Shown here: piece by piece, positions 4,283 to 60,593 of the stretch
Position numbering within the stretch: position 1 is the first letter of the stretch
Layout of the letters: every line of letters starts with the position of its first letter
From: Polyangiales bacterium
GTDB lineage: Bacteria; Myxococcota_A; Polyangia; Polyangiales; Ga0077539
NCBI GenBank assembly: GCA_044229975.1
Contig: JBGARZ010000008.1
Coordinates: 256,001-320,000, forward strand
Length of the DNA: 64,000 nucleotides
Direction: 5' to 3'
The notes under the pieces: model-generated
What the model saw: only the letters and a program-made list of their open reading frames with translations
Databases searched by the model: none
What the model was told of the DNA's origin: nothing
Program-made: the position numbers and the translations under genes

Positions 4283-4876
4283 CGTTGACGCTCGCGGGCG
4301 CGGCGGTGTCCCCTGCCAACGATGAGCTACGGAGCCGCGTCCGATCGATCGCTGGCCGAGACCGTCACGTGGTGCCGTTCGCGCACCTCGGCAGACGACC
4401 CGAAGGGCTGCCTGCGCAGCGAGGAGTTGCACCCGACCCTGCTCGCGCAAAACCGCTTCGAGGTGGTCGACGGGGTTCTTCACCAACGCTCGCAGTTGCT
4501 CTCGCTTCGGCCGCCGAAGGGAGACCCCATCGGATCGTCGGCGGGTCGACTGCTGGTCTACTTCCCCGACGCCAACCTCTGCGATGGGGCAGCGATGGAG
4601 GCGTCGAGCGGCTTCTTCGACGCCGACAACACCCCGCCCTGGGACACCTGGGTCGGCCTCGTCTCCACCATGAACCGCGAGCACAACGCCTCCTTCGCGA
4701 CGGCGCTCGTCTGCTGGGTTCCTGAGGCATTCGCGGCGGACGCGGACGCTGGCGTCGCGGTGAACCCGGAGGAGTGCATCCTGTGGCTCGACGAGGTCTA
4801 CGCGCGGGGCTGGATCTCGCCCGACGCACTGCCGTTTGCACGACCGCGTTGACGCTCGCAGGCGCGGCGGTGTCCC
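4283..4876 (+). repeat. 30-bp direct repeat pair (4283-4312 and 4847-4876) flanking the 4322-4852 gene
   Basis: cgttgacgctcgc(g/a)ggcgcggcggtgtccc occurs twice with 1 mismatch; each copy ends 8-9 nt before an ATG. Confidence 0.85.
4322..4852 (+). CDS. Hypothetical protein (FFDxDNxPPWDTWV motif)
   Basis: 176-aa ORF with normal codon usage and globular composition. Confidence 0.7.
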   Translation: MSYGAASDRSLAETVTWCRSRTSADDPKGCLRSEELHPTLLAQNRFEVVDGVLHQRSQLLSLRPPKGDPIGSSAGRLLVYFPDANLCDGAAMEASSGFFDADNTPPWDTWVGLVSTMNREHNASFATALVCWVPEAFAADADAGVAVNPEECILWLDEVYARGWISPDALPFARPR

Positions 4877-51525: not shown

Positions 51526-51612
51526 TCATCGAGCCACCGCGCGGGCGAGCGTCGACTTGCCCGAGCCGGAGGATCCGACCACCACCACGCGCGACAACAC
51601 CGACCGGCTCAC
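51526..51612 (-). pseudogene. Truncated P-loop kinase (adenylate kinase/topology-modulation-like) remnant
   Basis: VSRSVLSRVVVVGSSGSGKSTLARAVAR-stop; the GTG overlaps the upstream stop codon. Confidence 0.6.
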
Positions 51613-53828
51613 ATCCCGAGGCGCACGTCCTCGGTCAGGCCCACGGGGCCGACCGGGGCGGCACCGAGCGCGACGGACGTTCCGCCCGCGCCGCCCGCCG
51701 CGGGCGTGGTCGAGCGAGCGTAGCGGGGCATGTTCAACGTCGGCGCCGTGCCCACGTAGAGAACGCACACCGACGGGCCGCCCGCCCCGCCCGCCCCGCT
51801 GCCACCCGGACCGCCGCGACCGCCGATGGCGCCGTTGCCGCCGTTGCCCGAGTTCGAAGCGCCCATGCCGCCGCCACCGCCGCTGCCCGGAGCACCTGCG
51901 CCGCCGCCGTTGCCACCGCGACCGCCCACGCCGCCGGCGCCCGCCGTGAGGCTGCCGCCGTCGATGGTGACCATCGCGCCGACGCTCAGCACCGCGAAGC
52001 TCCCGCCGCCACCACCACCACCGCCACCCGCCGTCCCACCGCAGCCGCCTGCCCCGCCGCCGCCACCACCACCGCTACCGGTGCCGCAGCACATCAAGGT
52101 GCCGCAGGGGATCGAACCGCCACCACCGCTGCCGCCGCCGCCGCCGCCGCCGCCCGCGCGCCCGGGCGTGCCCACGCCACCACCCGGCGGAACATAGAGC
52201 CCCGTATCCGTCGCGAACGAGCCGACGTTGCTACCGGCGGTTCCGTTGGCGCCGTTGCCACCCGGGCTGCCAGCCGCCGCCGCACTCGCAGGCGCCGCGC
52301 TACCACCGTTGGTCACGACGCCCGCCACGCAGAGTCCCGCGCCGCCGCCGCCGCCCGCTGCGCCGCCCGCACCGCCGCCCGTCACCATCATCCCGGCGTT
52401 GCCCGACACGCCCGCGGCCTGGCCGAAGCGACCCGCTCCGCCTCCGCCTCCCGCACCCGCGCACGCCGAGGTACCCGCGGTGCCCGCCGCGCCGTTGGAC
52501 GACGTCGCCACGCCGCCCATCCCCCCGTTAGCCCCCGTCGCGCCCATCACGCCATCGGTGCCCGCCACGCCGACGGCGCCCGCGCCCGCGGTGATGGTGC
52601 ACGCCTGCAACGTCAGCCGACTGCTCCCGCCGCGCGCCCTCACGCCGTAGCTGCTCTCGCCCGGCGTCGTCGCCGCCGCCGACACGATGGTCAGCCGTTG
52701 CAGCACCGTCGCCCCCGCGAGCTCGTTCGCCACCACCGCCGTCGTCCCACCCTGGATCGTCGTCACGTTGCCCGCAGCGCGCGTCCAGTCCGACCCGTTG
52801 TAGCCGCCGTAGAGGCTCACCCCGGACGCGAGCGTGATCGTCTCCGCGTACGTGCCCGCAGCGATGTACACCGCGAAGCCCACACCCGCCGCCTGCGCCG
52901 CCGTGATGGCCGCCGCGATGGTGCGCTTGGGCTCTGCGCGCGTCCCAGGTGCCGCGTCGTTGCCGCCCTCCCGCACGAAGATCGCCCGCGCCGCGATGCC
53001 GTCGACACCGTCGCAGTTGGTGTCCATCCCGGTGAGGTCGGGCTCGTCGGGGTTGGTCCGGCAATCCACCATGCACGCGCCCGCGGTGCACACCATCCCG
53101 GCGCTGCAAGCCCGCCCGCACATGCCGCAGTTGCGCGCGTCGGTCTGGTAGTCGGGACCCTCGTGACCGCAGATGCGGGCGCCCGCGTCGCCGACGCCGC
53201 CGTCACCCGCCGCGCTCGCGGTGCAGCGGTCGACGGTGCACGGGTCCATGTCGTCGCAGTCGAAGGCGGGCGCTCGCTCGCACTGGTTGCGCGTCGTGTT
53301 GCAGCGCCAGGCGCCCGTGCAGATGTCGCCGCCCATGCTCGCGCACGCGCTGTCGTCGGACGCCGAACACTGCACCGGCGCCACGCAGCCGCCCGTGCAG
53401 GCGCCGCCGCCCGACGGGCAGTCGACCACGCACATCTGCCCGCCCGTGCACATCGAGCTGGTCGCCACGTGATCACAGCCGCCGCGGGTCGTGTTGCAGG
53501 TGTCCACCGTGCACTCGATGCCGTCGTCGCAGTTCGCGCGGGCGTGCGTCTCCTCGCAGAAGCCCATCCGGCAGACCTGTGCGTTGATGCAGAAGTCCGA
53601 CGCCGTGCACTGGTCGTCGCGATCACAGCGCCGCCGCGGAACGTCCGCCGGCACGTCGCCCTGCACGTCGACCGCACCCACGTCGGCGGGGCGATCGACG
53701 GCGGTGTCACCGAGGTCGGTGCGCGGGCCGGTGTCCGCCGGACCGCCGTCGGCGTTGCCGTCGATGCGCGCCCAGGGGACGCAACCCACCGCGAGACAGA
53801 GTGCCACCACCGACAGACGTGCAGACAT
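51609..53828 (-). CDS. Cys-rich/Gly-rich surface lipoprotein with DUF1565-like beta-helix
   Basis: Lipobox AVGC, CDDGxxCTVD repeats, DxNCDGVDG, GNDAAPGT..PKRTI, poly-Gly C-terminus. Confidence 0.82.
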   Translation of the reverse strand: MSARLSVVALCLAVGCVPWARIDGNADGGPADTGPRTDLGDTAVDRPADVGAVDVQGDVPADVPRRRCDRDDQCTASDFCINAQVCRMGFCEETHARANCDDGIECTVDTCNTTRGGCDHVATSSMCTGGQMCVVDCPSGGGACTGGCVAPVQCSASDDSACASMGGDICTGAWRCNTTRNQCERAPAFDCDDMDPCTVDRCTASAAGDGGVGDAGARICGHEGPDYQTDARNCGMCGRACSAGMVCTAGACMVDCRTNPDEPDLTGMDTNCDGVDGIAARAIFVREGGNDAAPGTRAEPKRTIAAAITAAQAAGVGFAVYIAAGTYAETITLASGVSLYGGYNGSDWTRAAGNVTTIQGGTTAVVANELAGATVLQRLTIVSAAATTPGESSYGVRARGGSSRLTLQACTITAGAGAVGVAGTDGVMGATGANGGMGGVATSSNGAAGTAGTSACAGAGGGGGAGRFGQAAGVSGNAGMMVTGGGAGGAAGGGGGAGLCVAGVVTNGGSAAPASAAAAGSPGGNGANGTAGSNVGSFATDTGLYVPPGGGVGTPGRAGGGGGGGGSGGGGSIPCGTLMCCGTGSGGGGGGGAGGCGGTAGGGGGGGGGSFAVLSVGAMVTIDGGSLTAGAGGVGGRGGNGGGAGAPGSGGGGGMGASNSGNGGNGAIGGRGGPGGSGAGGAGGPSVCVLYVGTAPTLNMPRYARSTTPAAGGAGGTSVALGAAPVGPVGLTEDVRLGM

Positions 53829-53969
53829 CGTCGCAGACCATAGCGCCATTGCCCGCGCGCGGAACCCTCCGATCAACAGCGTCGTGCGCTGCGTTCACGC
53901 CCCTACACCGAGGCGCGAGGTCCTCGTTGCGTCGTGCGACCGTCCCGCGGCAGCATCGCCGCGCACCCG

Positions 53970-55982: not shown

Positions 55983-58211
55983 CTAGGGCGCGGTAATGGT
56001 GAGGTCGTAGGCCGGGTTGTACATGGTGCCGTTGTACTGGCAGTCCACGAACACGTAGTAGGTCGTTCCCGCGGTGACGGTGAGGGAGACGTTTTCGGTG
56101 GGCCACGAGCCTGCCTGCGAGTCGCACGCGACCTGACTGCCGGTGTCGCAGGAGGTCTGGCGGACGTAGAGCGTCGCGGGCCAGAAGTCGCCCGTCAGAC
56201 GCACCGTCGCGGTGCCAGAGCGTGATGGTGTCCAACGCCAGATGCGCTCGACGCCGCGGCTGTTGGAGCTCGCCCCGCAGGTGGCCGAGTGGGTGCCGGC
56301 GCCGTTCATGTTGCCGGTGAAGCGCCCGCCCGCGGGGGCCGCGACGTACGGCAGCCCGCAGGTTCCGTTGCCGCAGCCCTCGTCGACCGCGCCGTCGCAG
56401 TCGTCGTCCATGTTGTTGCACGCCTCGGCGGCAACGTTGGCGACGCAGCTCCCGTTGCCGCAGCGGTTGTACCCGGCGCTGCACTGGAGCCCGCACGTGC
56501 CCGCCGAGCAGGTCGCGGTCGCGCTGCCACCACTCGGGCAGACGTTGCCGCAGCGCCCGCAGTTGGTGGTCGACGAGAGGGCCGTCTCGCAGCCGTTGCT
56601 CGCGGCGCTGTCGCAGTCGCCGAAGCCGTCCGCGCAGCGCGATCCGCACGCGCCCGCCGTGCAGGTGGCCGTCGCATTGGAGCCGGCGGTGCAAGCGTTT
56701 CCGCAGCGCCCGCAGTGGCTCACCGAACCGCGGGTGTCGACCTCGCAGCCATCCGACGCGACGCCATTGCAGTCGGCGAACCCGGCCGCGCAGGTGAACG
56801 CGCAGACGCCCGCGGCGCACGAAGCCGCGGTCGCGTTGGCGGGCACCGGGCACGCCGACGCGGCGCCGTAGCCGAGCCCATCGGAGCGGCAGGTCTCGAC
56901 CGACGAGGCGCCCGAGCAGCGGCGCGCGCCGGGCGAACAGATCCAGCCGGAGCACATGCCGCCGGTGCACGAGGAGCCCACCGCGCACGCGACCGGAGAG
57001 CTGCCACTGCCGTCGGCGGCGCAGACGTTCATGGTCGCGAGGTCGCGGCAGGTCGAGCTCCCAGGCGTGCACGCCCACGCGCGGCAGGCGCCATCACGGC
57101 ACGACTGCCCGCTCTCGCAGGGGCGCGTCGTGTAGCCCTGACCGTCGGCCGAGCACACACGCGAGGCCGTGCCCGAGGCGCACTCCACGGCGCCGGGAGT
57201 GCACGTCCACGGAACACACGCGCCCATGACGCACCCCGCCCGCTCGCCACAGGAGACGTTGGTGGTCGCGAGGCCGTCGGCGCCGCAGACCCGGCGCACC
57301 CTGGCGTCGACGCAGGTCGACGCGCCGGGCGAGCACACACGCGTCACGCAGGCGCCATCGCGGCACGAGCGATCGGCGGGACACGCGGTGGTGGTGGAGC
57401 CGAGGCCGTCGTCGTTGCACACGGCCACGCCCGTCGCTCCCTCGCAGCGCATCGCGCCGGGGGTGCAGGTGCGCGACACGCAGCGACCGGCGGAGCACGA
57501 CTCGCTGGCGCCGCAGGTCTGCTCGACCCACGCGCTGCCGCGGGCGTCGCAGCGGCGAGCGCGGCGGGCGTCGAGGCACTCGATGGCGGCGGGCGTACAC
57601 ACGCGCGGTCGGCAGATGGCGCCCGCGGTGCAGTAGAGCCCGTCGGCGCAGTCGACGTCGGAGGCGCACTCGACGCACTGCCCGCGGGCGGTGTCGCAGA
57701 CCAGCATCAGGTCGCTGCACTCGCGCGACGAGCGGCAGGTGCGCGGCGGAGGGACGCAGGCGTTGGAGCGGCAGACGGTTCCGTCGGCGCAGTCGGGGTC
57801 GGCGTTGCAGTCGACGCAGAAGCCGCGGGTCGGGTCGCAGACCTGGCCGGGGCACATGCGCGACGTGGTGCAGGTGACGGCGGGGACGCAGCGGCTCCCC
57901 CTGCACGAGCGCCCGCTGCCGCCACAGTCGTCGGGCGAGACGCACTCGACGCAGCGCCCGCGAACGCGGTCGCACACGTTGCCCGCCGCGCGACAGGGCG
58001 TGTCGTCGACACAGGTCGTGGTGCCGATGTCACCGATGGAGGGGACGTCGGAGAGCTCACGATCGAGCGCGGGAGTCGCGTCGCTGGCGACGTCAACGGA
58101 TGCGTCGACCGGAGGCACGTCGGACCCGGAGCTCGGCGGGAGAACCACCGCGGGTGTGCACGCTGCGAGCAGGACGAAGAGGAGGGCGAGGCGGGTGGAC
58201 GGGGCCGACAT
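55983..58211 (-). CDS. Large Cys-rich repeat lipoprotein (myxobacterial adhesin-like; MopE-type repeat, PPC-like C-terminus)
   Basis: Lipobox LAAC; CTPG...C..DG repeats; DC.....NGCE; EACNNMDDDCDGAVDEG. Confidence 0.85.
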   Translation of the reverse strand: MSAPSTRLALLFVLLAACTPAVVLPPSSGSDVPPVDASVDVASDATPALDRELSDVPSIGDIGTTTCVDDTPCRAAGNVCDRVRGRCVECVSPDDCGGSGRSCRGSRCVPAVTCTTSRMCPGQVCDPTRGFCVDCNADPDCADGTVCRSNACVPPPRTCRSSRECSDLMLVCDTARGQCVECASDVDCADGLYCTAGAICRPRVCTPAAIECLDARRARRCDARGSAWVEQTCGASESCSAGRCVSRTCTPGAMRCEGATGVAVCNDDGLGSTTTACPADRSCRDGACVTRVCSPGASTCVDARVRRVCGADGLATTNVSCGERAGCVMGACVPWTCTPGAVECASGTASRVCSADGQGYTTRPCESGQSCRDGACRAWACTPGSSTCRDLATMNVCAADGSGSSPVACAVGSSCTGGMCSGWICSPGARRCSGASSVETCRSDGLGYGAASACPVPANATAASCAAGVCAFTCAAGFADCNGVASDGCEVDTRGSVSHCGRCGNACTAGSNATATCTAGACGSRCADGFGDCDSAASNGCETALSSTTNCGRCGNVCPSGGSATATCSAGTCGLQCSAGYNRCGNGSCVANVAAEACNNMDDDCDGAVDEGCGNGTCGLPYVAAPAGGRFTGNMNGAGTHSATCGASSNSRGVERIWRWTPSRSGTATVRLTGDFWPATLYVRQTSCDTGSQVACDSQAGSWPTENVSLTVTAGTTYYVFVDCQYNGTMYNPAYDLTITAP

Positions 58212-58395
58212 GGCGCCGGAGTACAACAGCGCGGGGGGCGTGTCTCTTGGCGCCCGGGTGGGCGTCACGTCTCCTTGCAACGCGGGCGGGTCGACCGGCA
58301 CCCCAAAGGTCACAGAGCACCAACGATCGAAAATGGCCTTCAAGCATCAATTGTCTTTACGGACATCCGTGTCTGGAGTACACAGGTCCATCGTC

Positions 58396-58431
58396 ATGTC
58401 TGCCTGTCTTCACCATCCGCATCGTTATTGA
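58396..58431 (+). other. Possible leader peptide MSACLHHPHRY ending TAT-TGA-C
   Basis: CAGGT 8 nt upstream; codons unusual for this GC-rich genome; followed by hairpin tcgggc-tcgcg-gcccga and then the tRNA. Confidence 0.3.
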
Positions 58432-58472
58432 CCGCCTCGGGCTCGCGGCCCGATCTGGCATCGTCAATCAAC

Positions 58473-58557
58473 GCGGATGTGACCTGAGCGGCAATAGGAC
58501 CGGGCTGTAAACCCGGCGGCCACAAGCCTTCGTGGGTTCGAGTCCCACCATCCCGCA
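58473..58557 (+). tRNA. Atypical tRNA-Tyr (anticodon GTA) with long variable arm and bulged acceptor stem
   Basis: Anticodon arm CCGGG-CTGTAAA-CCCGG; T arm GTGGG-TTCGAGT-CCCAC; variable arm GGC-CACAA-GCC; acceptor GCGGATG/CATCC(C)GC; discriminator A; followed by CCG rather than CCA. Confidence 0.85.
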
Positions 58558-58630
58558 CCGCCCGGCGCTGGCGCCCTTCGTGGGAGTTGGCGGACCGGTT
58601 GTTCAATGGAGAAAGAGAGGGTTTTGCGTC

Positions 58631-59309
58631 ATGGGAGTCATCATCGAGGTTCGCGCGGCGGAGGGCGGGGCGGACGCCCGTTCATTGGTGTCAGAGCAGG
58701 TTGCCGTGTATGTGAAGAGGGCGCAGCGAAAGTGTCTTTGACGTCGAGATCACCGACAGCCGGGAAGGGCGCATCGTCCTCCTGGTGACCGGGGAGTGGG
58801 CGCACGATGCGTTCAAGCACGAGGCGGGCGGGCATCGGTGGCAGCGGGTTCCGCCGGGCGACAAGCGGGGTCGGGTGCAGACGAGCACGGTGACGGTGGC
58901 GGTGCTGTCGGAGCCGACGGCGACGCAGCTCACCATCGCGCCGGGCGACCTCCAGTGGGCCTTCAGCCGAGGCAGCGGCGCGGGCGGACAGAACCGCAAC
59001 AAGACGGATTCCGCCGTCGACCTCACGCACCGGCCGACGGGCGTGGTGGTGCACTGCGAGAGCGAGCGTTCGCAGCAGCAGAACAAGGCCAACGCGCTGG
59101 CGATGCTACGGGCGCGATTGTGGGAGGCGCGCGTCGAGGCCGACCACCAGGCCCGCAGCGCGGCGCGACGCGAGCAGCTCGGAAGCGGCGAGCGCGGCGA
59201 CAAACGATGGACGGTGCGAACGCAGGACGACGTCGTGACGCACCAGGTGTCGGGGCAGAAGTTCAGGCTGCGGGACTACCTCGAAGGGGACTACGAGGTG
59301 GCGAGGTAA
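58631..59309 (+). CDS. Minimal class-1 peptide chain release factor homologue, ~225 aa, needing a +1 frameshift at CTT-TGA-C (58736-58742)
   Basis: Frame 0: MGVIIEVRAAEGGADAR...KCL-stop. +1 frame from 58740 continues without stops: DVEITDS...EAGGHRWQRVPPGDKRGRVQTS...GSGAGGQNRNKTDSAV...ERSQQQNK...GSGERGDKRWT. Confidence 0.9.
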
Positions 59310-59323
59310 GGGGGCGATCGAGC

Positions 59324-59464
59324 CGACCTCCCCCCGCTGCCGCGCGCCCCTCTCCCTGGCAGGAGAGGGGCTGATCTCACCTGACAATTCGAGGTCGAAC
59401 GCGTGCGTCGACAGAGCCCCTCTCCTGCCAGGGAGAGGGGCGCGCGGCAGCGGGGGTGAGGTCG
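59324..59464. repeat. ~50-bp inverted repeat pair containing CCCCTCTCC...GGAGAGGGG palindromes (REP-like; possible terminator)
   Basis: 59324-59372 matches the reverse complement of 59415-59464 with one indel. Confidence 0.88.
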
Positions 59465-59489
59465 ACGCGGCCTCGTCGTATCCTCCTGC

Positions 59490-60593
59490 ATGATGACGCG
59501 ACGCCCGGTGTTGCTCTCCCTCGGATACACCGCCCTCCTCGGCTGCGGCGACGCCCACCTCCCGATCACCACCACGGACGTGCCCACCGTCGCCACGGAC
59601 GCTCCCGTCGGTCCGCCACCGGGCAACCCCGATGGAAGCTGCGAAGTCCCCGTCGAGGCCCGCGCCGCCGACGTCTCCTCTCCGCGCACCGTCGTCGGCA
59701 CTGGAACCCCCGCGAGCTGCACCGGCGACGCCTTCGTCGCGGCCGTGGCGCGCGGCGGCGTCATCACCTTCGACTGCGGCCCCGACCCGGTGACCATCAC
59801 CCTCGCGCGAACCGCCAAGGTCTTCAACGACACCGGCCCCGACATCGTCATCGACGGCGGCGGGCGCGTGACCCTGAGCGGCGGCGGGCGCACCCGCATC
59901 CTCTACATGAACACCTGCGACCCGTCGCAACACTGGACCACCTCGCACTGCGACAACCAGGACCATCCCCGGCTCACGGTGCAGAACCTCACCTTCGTCG
60001 ATGGCGACTCGCGCGCGGAGACCACCTACGACGGCGGCGGCGCCATCTGGGTTCGTGGCGGGAGGTTTCGCGTCGTCAACAGCCGCTTCTTCCGCAACCG
60101 CTGCGCCGACGTGGGGCCCGACGTCGGGGGCGCGGCGGTGCGGGTGTTCAGCCAGTTCGAGGGGCGACCGGTGTACGTGGTGGGCTCCACCTTCGGCGGC
60201 GCCGAGGCCGACGGCAACCAGTGCTCCAACGGCGGCGCCATCAGCAGCATCGGCGTGAGCTGGACCATCCTCAACAGCGTCTTCTCGCACAACCGCGCCG
60301 TCGGCCGCGGCGGCAACCCGGCGACGTCGGGGCCCGGCGGCGGGAGCGGCGGGGCGATCTACAACGACGGCAACCGCATGACCCTCTCGCTCTGCGGAAC
60401 GCGCATCGAAGACAACGAGGTCGTCCAGCACGGCAGCGGGATCTTCTTCGTCACCAACGACCACACGGGCGACGTGCGCCTCGACCGCTCGGCCCTGCGC
60501 CGCAACCGCGGCGGGAGCTGGTACGCCGTCCGGCCGCAGATCTCCTGCCACGACGACACGCCCATCGCGGTGATCGACAGCGTCTTCGAGTAG
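59490..60593 (+). CDS. Right-handed beta-helix (pectin-lyase-like) lipoprotein
   Basis: Lipobox LLGC; GTPASCT, GGVITFDCG, repeated GGAI and F..N motifs; start 59490 or 59493. Confidence 0.85.
   Translation: MMTRRPVLLSLGYTALLGCGDAHLPITTTDVPTVATDAPVGPPPGNPDGSCEVPVEARAADVSSPRTVVGTGTPASCTGDAFVAAVARGGVITFDCGPDPVTITLARTAKVFNDTGPDIVIDGGGRVTLSGGGRTRILYMNTCDPSQHWTTSHCDNQDHPRLTVQNLTFVDGDSRAETTYDGGGAIWVRGGRFRVVNSRFFRNRCADVGPDVGGAAVRVFSQFEGRPVYVVGSTFGGAEADGNQCSNGGAISSIGVSWTILNSVFSHNRAVGRGGNPATSGPGGGSGGAIYNDGNRMTLSLCGTRIEDNEVVQHGSGIFFVTNDHTGDVRLDRSALRRNRGGSWYAVRPQISCHDDTPIAVIDSVFE

Follow-up and report, generated by a model that had tools for sequence, protein, structure and literature searches.

A short RF1-like release factor family behind a conserved stop-codon gate in large phages, megaplasmids and myxobacterial chromosomes

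Introduction

Can a release factor gene that is interrupted by a stop codon be a working gene, and if so, when is its product made and which stops does it read? The question is raised by a locus in a 64,000-nt stretch of a Polyangiales bacterium contig (hereafter the window), where the release factor domains are divided between two open reading frames. A preliminary description of this DNA had read the two as one gene, running from ATG 58631 through 36 codons to CTT TGA C and then in the +1 frame to TAA, and this layout holds (Table 1). Joining the frames across CTT TGA C gives a product of 225 aa. As that description had also stated, the PCRF and GGQ domains lie in the +1 frame, which has PCRF and RF-1 Pfam matches together with RWQRVPPGD and GGQ. 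The short frame supplies helix alpha5. The heptamer CTT TGA C occurs once in the window against 2.3 expected, not beyond chance alone, and it is conservation among relatives rather than rarity that lifts the shift site above chance.

Table 1. Coordinates of the short release factor (RF) gene and associated features in the window
Feature	Position	Strand	Basis or remark
Accessory tRNA-Tyr(GTA)	58473..58556	+	ARAGORN; Rfam 37.6 bits; ends 74 nt 5' of the short RF gene
Putative ribosome-binding site, purine-rich	58608..58621	+	From sequence; presumed function
Frame 0: 36 codons (first strand, helix alpha5 with GGAD tip) and gate TGA	58631..58741	+	ATG 58631
Internal Shine-Dalgarno position, degenerate: CGAAAG (family consensus GGAGG)	58727..58732	+	Position matrix, duplex energy
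prfB-type +1 shift site CTT TGA C	58736..58742	+	Sequence, family conservation
+1 frame: 189 codons, remainder of RF1-like domains 2-4	58740..59309	+	Stop TAA 59307-59309
Recognition tripeptide P-P-G (family P-P-T/N; E. coli RF1 P188-A189-T190)	58851..58859	+	Alignment
Catalytic GGQ	58983..58991	+	100% conserved, 268 family rows

The interrupted frame is conserved and under selection

We gathered 406 loci by a DNA motif of the recognition loop (101 viral, 118 genome), by profile (the best 80 viral and best 80 metagenome matches) and from kin genomes (27). None of these searches used the shift site, the motif scans demand the exact loop sequence, and forms up to 394 aa were covered. Setting aside 5 incomplete loci and 45 canonical RF1 genes left 356 loci, which form 274 clusters at 90% DNA identity. 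A single-sequence scan of viral contigs gave 29 pattern matches and 0 confirmed; the profile and motif scans succeeded.

A +1 break is present in 232 of the 274 clusters, at the exact column of the window copy in 214 of those. The remaining clusters comprise 32 with an in-frame stop, 9 that are continuous and 1 otherwise broken. The codon before the gate stop is CTT in 229 of the 232 (TTT in 2, CCT in 1), whereas CTT makes up 11% of leucine codons elsewhere in the same genes. The base after the stop is most often C (178/232), and GGAGG stands at -11 to -7 in 120 of the shifted clusters. The proposed +1 site, prfB-like in type but placed elsewhere than in prfB, is therefore borne out. The check suggested with it, whether homologues keep CTT-TGA at the same column behind a Shine-Dalgarno (SD) element, finds CTT-stop there in most. 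The case that would have undone it, homologues that are all continuous ORFs, describes 9 clusters only. Because 232 clusters are shifted and 32 have an in-frame stop, 264 of the 274 depend on failed termination.

Both frames are under purifying selection. Across 30 disjoint close pairs, frame 0 has a dN/dS of 0.146 and the part beyond the shift site one of 0.183. For the 14 codons past the site the ratio is 2.67 when they are read in frame 0 but 0.31 in the +1 frame, so selection switches frame at the shift site. It might be argued that the gene is a pseudogene or an assembly indel, or that only a 174-aa C-terminal frame (GTG 58785) is made, as would suit the degenerate SD of the window copy and the gene callers, which annotate the C-terminal part alone in about half of the 120 matches listed. 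However, the break is common to 214 clusters, frame 0 has a dN/dS of 0.15, and +1-frame selection starts directly after the site, before the first start codon. The preliminary description had also asked for the raw reads to be checked for the extra T; over 58553-58820 a contig from another public run (X4, depth 3, one run) matches with one substitution and no gap, evidence against an assembly indel. Public contigs did not reach the TAG site of the second copy in this genome (described below), and the RNA run compared covers short pieces and the tRNA region of a relative but not the shift site. We regard an artefact as exceedingly improbable, and it is confirmed that the split gene is not a pseudogene. 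What the gene callers produce is a systematic annotation error, in which these genes are split into two ORFs or entered as 'peptide chain release factor 1' without their N-terminal part.

The device resembles that of prfB in having CTT before the stop, an SD-like element at equal spacing, C mostly after the stop, and a class I release factor as the gated product. Unlike prfB, the gated gene is RF1-derived, without domain 1, accessory and sporadic. The shift site comes after helix alpha5 (codon 36) and not in domain 1, the SD consensus is GGAGG and not AGGGGG, and an in-frame stop replaces the shift in 32 relatives. The window copy has the CUU-stop with +1 continuation and lacks an internal SD 3 nt before the CUU; the host's own RF2 gene (prfB, contig C11) has CTT TGA C with a strong SD. 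Across the family, the anti-SD duplex has a median of -9.5 kcal/mol versus -2.7 at 4726 control positions, and a duplex of -5 kcal/mol or stronger forms at 79% of family sites and 28% of controls. In the window lineage the values are -0.5 for the window copy and -3.8 for its paralogue on contig C4 (described below). All of these energies refer to a generic anti-SD, the 16S 3' end not being found in the assembly. The weak internal SD remarked on earlier is thus right for the window copy but local to its lineage, not general.

In a mostly betaproteobacterial subgroup of the family (L209, L217, L224, L239, L287, L297, L306 and L080), a CTT TGA shift lies some 10-12 codons further downstream. The cassette therefore arose or moved at least twice within the family.

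The product is an RF1-type factor without domain 1

Bacterial forms of the factor are given as RF1, RF2, ArfB and PrfH in the cited portion of Burroughs and Aravind (PMC6514570). Against curated models, the 225-aa product scores best as RF1 yet falls below every cut-off: 203 of 423 bits for prfA (TIGR00019), 142 of 370 for prfB (TIGR00020), 74 of 167 for prfH (TIGR03072) and 49 of 100 for ArfB (NF006718). Domain 1 was found upstream of the short factor in 0 of 224 loci versus 40 of 42 canonical RF1 controls, and its absence, claimed before, is upheld. An AlphaFold2 model of a continuous relative, P0009 (64% identical to the window product; pLDDT 89), overlays domains 2-4 of ribosome-bound RF1 with Z 24 and an rmsd of 1.5 A; for RF2, Z is about 20-22, and for PrfH it is 15 with an rmsd of 3.8 A. 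In this model and in the Pfam matches, the GGQ hydrolase domain is inserted in the codon-recognition domain, as in class I release factors. In trees, the family lies on one side of a branch (SH-aLRT 96), sister to 23 sampled RF1 rows (92) and apart from RF2 and PrfH; the tree is a quick one with long branches and a limited RF1 sample, which bears on the exact origin. FastTree agrees in placing the family beside RF1. Tree and structure match thus both support the RF1 ancestry proposed at the outset, and the short factors form a clade of their own beside RF1 and are not PrfH.

The short factor is like RF1 (prfA) in its best sequence and structure match and in mostly keeping RF1 residues. It differs from RF1 in the absence of domain 1, a short C-terminus, its long-branched separate clade, the changes E123D, V184W and A189P, a deletion of 153-156, and stop-gated expression, which is not described for RF1. 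The window copy has neither domain 1 nor the PxT tripeptide, and it lies below the TIGR00019 cut-off and outside the RF1 clade. Its loop, PPx where RF2 has SPF, and its TIGR00020 score set it apart from RF2 as well. ArfB/YaeJ lacks a codon-recognition domain and has a GGQ domain on its own, with a basic tail; the short factor has domains 2/4. The RF1 of the host's family (G000:C4:116k, L186-L208) resembles the short factor in its alpha5 tip, RAAEGG, but the two do not come together in the trees.

The loop PPG, offered earlier as the defining feature, does not define the family: among the 274 clusters the tripeptide is PPT in 174, PPN in 57, PPS in 8 and PPG in 4, and the PxT of RF1 is mostly retained. 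At position T190 (E. coli RF1 numbering, 268 rows), Thr accounts for 70%, Asn for 23%, Ser for 3% and Gly for 2%; because Gly is so rare there, the window PPG is an outlier. Kept across the same rows are G120, Q185 (99%), P188, T198 (85%, with Ser in 15%), GGQ (100%) and the 299-303 region. Family-specific changes near the decoding site are E123D (97%), V184W (93%) and A189P (94%; RF2 has Pro here). The deleted hairpin residues 153-156 align with RF2 E170/E172, and the residue aligned with RF2 E167 is acidic in 80%. RF1 contacts the stop through G120, E123, T190, Q185 and T198, and T190 is thought to exclude G2 (Hoernes et al., PMC5776981, in the part cited). According to the cited part of Abdalaal et al. 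(PMC7530605), loss of charge at such residues broadens RF2, as E167K, E170K and E172K show, and a broadened release factor comes at a cost on sense codons. As far as residues can tell, the evidence on specificity is mixed.

Hosts, neighbours and a second copy

The family is found in large phages, megaplasmids and, mostly myxobacterial, chromosomes. Among the first 80 matches listed, 18 phage contigs with the short factor are at least 200 kb long, and the six huge-phage records of 485-735 kb that were examined carry a family member or a basal relative. Plasmid carriers measure 0.7-0.8 Mb. Cultured carriers include Archangium, Minicystis, Nannocystis, Pyxidicoccus, Thiobacillus and Variovorax plasmids, among them the strains Archangium gephyra SDU49, Nannocystis exedens DSM 71 and Minicystis rosea DSM 24000. 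Occurrence is sporadic, with the gene in 4 of 31 genomes of the host's family and in 4 of 401 phylum genomes at the threshold used. A TGA-interrupted factor on the Bosea plasmid pBSY19_1 (L432; NZ_CP016463.1 257680-258348) stands between a CRISPR-Cas operon and a HipA-type module; it is unannotated, and a hypothetical ORF is called on the opposite strand.

Because the factor is common on large phage contigs, lacks the RF3 contact domain and is nearly always gated, it could be a takeover or interference factor, one that ends translation at near-stop or sense codons or lingers without RF3 recycling and so favours phage mRNA, the gate limiting its toxicity. We consider this quite improbable: the gene is under purifying selection in bacterial chromosomes away from phage genes, and Myxococcota supply 73 of the 118 genome loci.

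The host genome (10.0 Mb) has a normal RF1, a normal RF2 and RF3 besides the short factor, which is thus accessory, as had been proposed. Its fifth GGQ-domain gene is probably ArfB. PrfH was found in 0 of the 61 genomes searched, the host genome included, and the three RtcB genes of the host all lie on contigs other than that of the short factor. A second copy of the short factor, 90% identical to the window copy, lies at G000:C4:10899-11868 on the minus strand (L182). It breaks at the same codon with the gate CTT TAG C, ends in TAG, and stands behind tRNA-Tyr and tRNA-His. Between the two copies, dN/dS is 0.15 before the shift site and 0.14 after. The flanking ORFs of both look like ordinary chromosomal genes and not prophage (for C4, from a listing of the flank rather than a family scan). 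Relatives L184 and L269 have tRNA-Tyr and tRNA-His at the same place as the C4 paralogue, and the housekeeping tRNA-Tyr (C32) differs in sequence from the one upstream of the window copy. The tRNA-Tyr and short RF of the window look like the remnant of a tRNA-Tyr/tRNA-His/RF cassette among chromosomal genes. The closest relatives that have a name come from records labelled Myxococcaceae or Polyangiales, which points to a myxobacterial host.

In 51 of the 106 viral clusters whose flanks are long enough, the locus holds a tRNA, and in 42 it holds at least three; in genome clusters a tRNA is present in 11 of 70. The family probably travels with phage tRNA arrays. Genes that recur beside it encode an HNH nuclease (23 loci, mostly directly upstream), NADAR (13), Pth2 (6 and 4), a SLOG protein, a phosphatase and a CCA-adding/poly(A)-polymerase-family protein. 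For chromosomal copies, the 79 genes scanned of 140 adjacent ORFs picked include no shared neighbour, and a sigma-54 motif was found upstream in 0 of 223 loci. One CTA-anticodon tRNA was seen near the gene among the cluster loci scanned, so there is no general link with suppressor tRNAs. That tRNA, at L033:5538-5614 (oriented to the RF gene), is amber suppressor-like, and the short factor of the same phage is TAG-gated.

In such surroundings, and with domain 1 missing as in PrfH, a rescue role deserves consideration: a PrfH/ArfB-like factor, induced by failed termination, that acts independently of the codon on stalled, non-stop or damaged ribosomes. The tRNA arrays, Pth2, NADAR, the CCA-adding/poly(A)-polymerase-family protein and the HNH nucleases would suit it. 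PrfH/RFH is also of similar size, has GGQ and is sporadically distributed. The PrfH loop is an SxY motif, whereas that of the short factor is of the RF1 type. According to the portion of PMC9304027 cited here, PrfH acts solely on damaged ribosomes, with RtcB2. Directly upstream of the window copy stands a tRNA and not rtcB, and RtcB was absent from 31 neighbour-cluster representatives and 79 adjacent genes scanned. Since the family also groups with RF1 and not with PrfH, scores 74 bits against the TIGR03072 cut-off of 167, is stop-gated and conserves the stop-reading residues, we think rescue unlikely.

Phage release factors have been noted before. In the cited portions of Al-Shayeb et al. (PMC7162821) and Borges et al. 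(bioRxiv 10.1101/2021.08.26.457843) they are named RF1 or RF2, and the word 'frameshift' occurs 0 times. In Iyer et al., release factors appear in the reference list only. The Lak phage factor groups with RF2, unlike the short factor, and mycobacteriophage 'RF-1' proteins match the GGQ domain only. PHROGs holds no family-specific model. Open-licence full texts gave no account of the family or of a frameshifted RF1-type gene; subscription papers lie mostly outside that set, and supplements may list these genes as RF1. An RF1-derived family with a conserved recoding device, a combination absent from the literature searched, is therefore apparently undescribed. Its components are known in kind, and its TAG gate departs from the prfB rule.

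The gate stop varies and the shift can be replaced

Gate stops in the 232 shifted clusters are TGA in 162, TAG in 64 and TAA in 6. By contrast, prfB gates are TGA in 98.6% and TAA in 1.4%, with TAG in 0 of 8160 genes, as given in the cited part of Prince et al. (bioRxiv 10.1101/2024.09.24.614795). The window copy obeys the prfB rule of a UGA or UAA gate and never UAG; the family and the C4 paralogue break it, and the UGA-specific sensing put forward in the preliminary description has to be given up. On a 195-tip tree the gate stop switches 45 times, close to what shuffled labels give (mean 52.6, minimum 45), and in 4 of 30 close pairs the two members have different gates. None of the recognition-loop residues follows the gate stop, and loop T/N against gate stop is not significant in 11 independent pairs. 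Strong ties to the gate stop exist only at columns that the +1 codon itself dictates. Next comes position 150, where Q goes with TGA gates (p=9e-5 in 519 tests, uncorrected for kinship).

The end of the gene was also considered. It is TAA in 20 of 55 GC-rich chromosomal loci versus 14 of 310 neighbouring genes. Because both host factors read TAA, such an end is what one expects of a gene translated during a shortage of one host factor; the preference could also come from high expression or a phage origin. TGA-gated GC-rich chromosomal copies still end in TGA in 18 of 39 cases.

In Kofleriaceae/Haliangiales-type loci, a leader ORF of 9-11 codons (GTG start, ..LRE.. end) lies 60-85 nt upstream of the RF start (L218, L221, L241, L248, L250, L252, L253, L268, L273, L275, L277 and L281; similar in L243). 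It is followed by a hairpin inside a longer stem, 3 of 13 pairs being compensated. In one clade, 12 of 13 loci have the same stop in the leader ORF and in the gate, and the combination TGA/TGA is found at three places in the tree. The leader ORF is possibly a second termination sensor or attenuator, and it is absent from the window copy. Because leader and gate stops match, stop identity may be tuned per copy rather than interchangeable.

In the 32 in-frame members the gate is TGA in 31 and TAG in 1, and six carry two TGAs. These stops fall at seven columns in several separate clades. Members with one or two in-frame TGAs in place of the frameshift (L431-L432, L434-L436, L438, L322, L295 and others) include huge phages of 635-735 kb and Variovorax, Bosea and Cupriavidus plasmids; a Variovorax record annotates such a gene as two CDSs. 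At the 7 in-frame stop columns, a single Trp occurs in 268 rows. By 49-kb tests, two huge phages use TGA as an ordinary stop (ORF cover 0.75-0.79 under code 11, 0.79-0.80 with TGA open). A stop-continuation test of 14 loci also favours the standard code, three of them being uninformative for want of a TGA-ended ORF. The in-frame stops look like read-through gates, and in low-GC phages the in-frame TGA may reflect hosts whose ribosomes ignore the SD. The hairpin signal behind these stops is weak: the median z is -0.23, with values below -1.5 in 28% of 32 versus 7% of 60 shifted loci (L278, which has an extra indel, excluded).

A proposed mechanism

The layout, the conserved site, the selection in two frames, the RF1 domain 2-4 fold of the continuous-relative model and the intact GGQ are established, and on them we build a mechanism. 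By analogy with prfB, termination very probably competes with +1 slippage at CUU-stop. While CUU occupies the P site and the stop the A site, timely arrival of a release factor would yield the 36-aa peptide. If the factor is late, tRNA-Leu would re-pair on UUU and the 225-aa protein would be made. The window copy, which has lost its SD, probably has a lower shift rate; in Flavobacterium, prfB sites that have no SD keep shifting at about 7% (PMC10798248, in the portion cited). The product would then enter the A site and hydrolyse peptidyl-tRNA without RF3 recycling. Catalysis without RF3 is plausible since release does not need domain 1, which is reported to be dispensable for it in the cited part of PMC1586002. 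In the last and least certain step, broadened stop reading would close a negative feedback loop. The short factor would thus be a spare, RF3-independent terminator, made when termination is slow, likely reading UGA, UAG and UAA, and switching off its own synthesis, a reading to which we give an even chance.

The argument for broadened reading comes from the gates. For feedback to operate in the UGA-gated 70%, an RF1-derived product must read UGA, and a factor able to read every stop is the simplest explanation for gates that switch freely while the loop stays unchanged. Against this, the RF1 determinants Q185, T190 and T198 are largely kept and T190 is reported to exclude G2, which argues for UAA/UAG only. 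With RF1 specificity retained, the gate would report on host RF2 (TGA) or RF1 (TAG) and in this way signal translation stress or the stage of infection in general, and true autoregulation would be confined to TAG/TAA-gated copies. Retention of P188 besides Q185, T190 and T198, a host genome that keeps one TGA-gated and one TAG-gated copy, and the leader-ORF match in 12 of 13 loci of one clade all speak for such a product. However, it leaves 70% of the shifted members without feedback, though a broadened factor is costly (PMC7530605, same portion), and the family-specific changes ring the decoding site. An RF1-specific product is, in our estimate, somewhat unlikely. Returning to the all-stop reading, we tentatively propose, at rather less than even confidence, an undescribed phage-spread family kept in myxobacterial chromosomes, whose members are omnipotent release factors regulated by slippage or a leaky stop at their own stop. 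The window copy, with its rare loop Gly and lost SD, may be a weak or drifting member.

For stop-codon autoregulation, the prfB frameshift is the textbook example. Here the same device occurs in an RF1-derived family, at another position and with any of the three stops, and an in-frame stop has taken its place several times. These natural sequences bear on why bacteria have no single all-stop release factor and on what the release factors of huge phages do. If all-stop reading is true, the family provides a natural omnipotent bacterial factor and a form of the RF2 frameshift switch that is worked by UAG. Genetic-code engineering could make use of a 225-aa RF3-independent factor whose specificity is changed.

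Other features of the window

A sigma-70 promoter scan of 58200-59600 found none. On the minus strand, 51609-53876 and 55983-58343 encode two long Cys/Gly-rich repeat proteins without Pfam hits, probably lipoproteins. Just 3' of the short RF gene, at 59331-59456, lies a perfect 42-nt inverted repeat with a 42-nt spacer, a candidate REP/MITE-like element or terminator. Its arm has 3 copies in the genome, and pieces of it occur in other contigs of the public runs X4 and X16.
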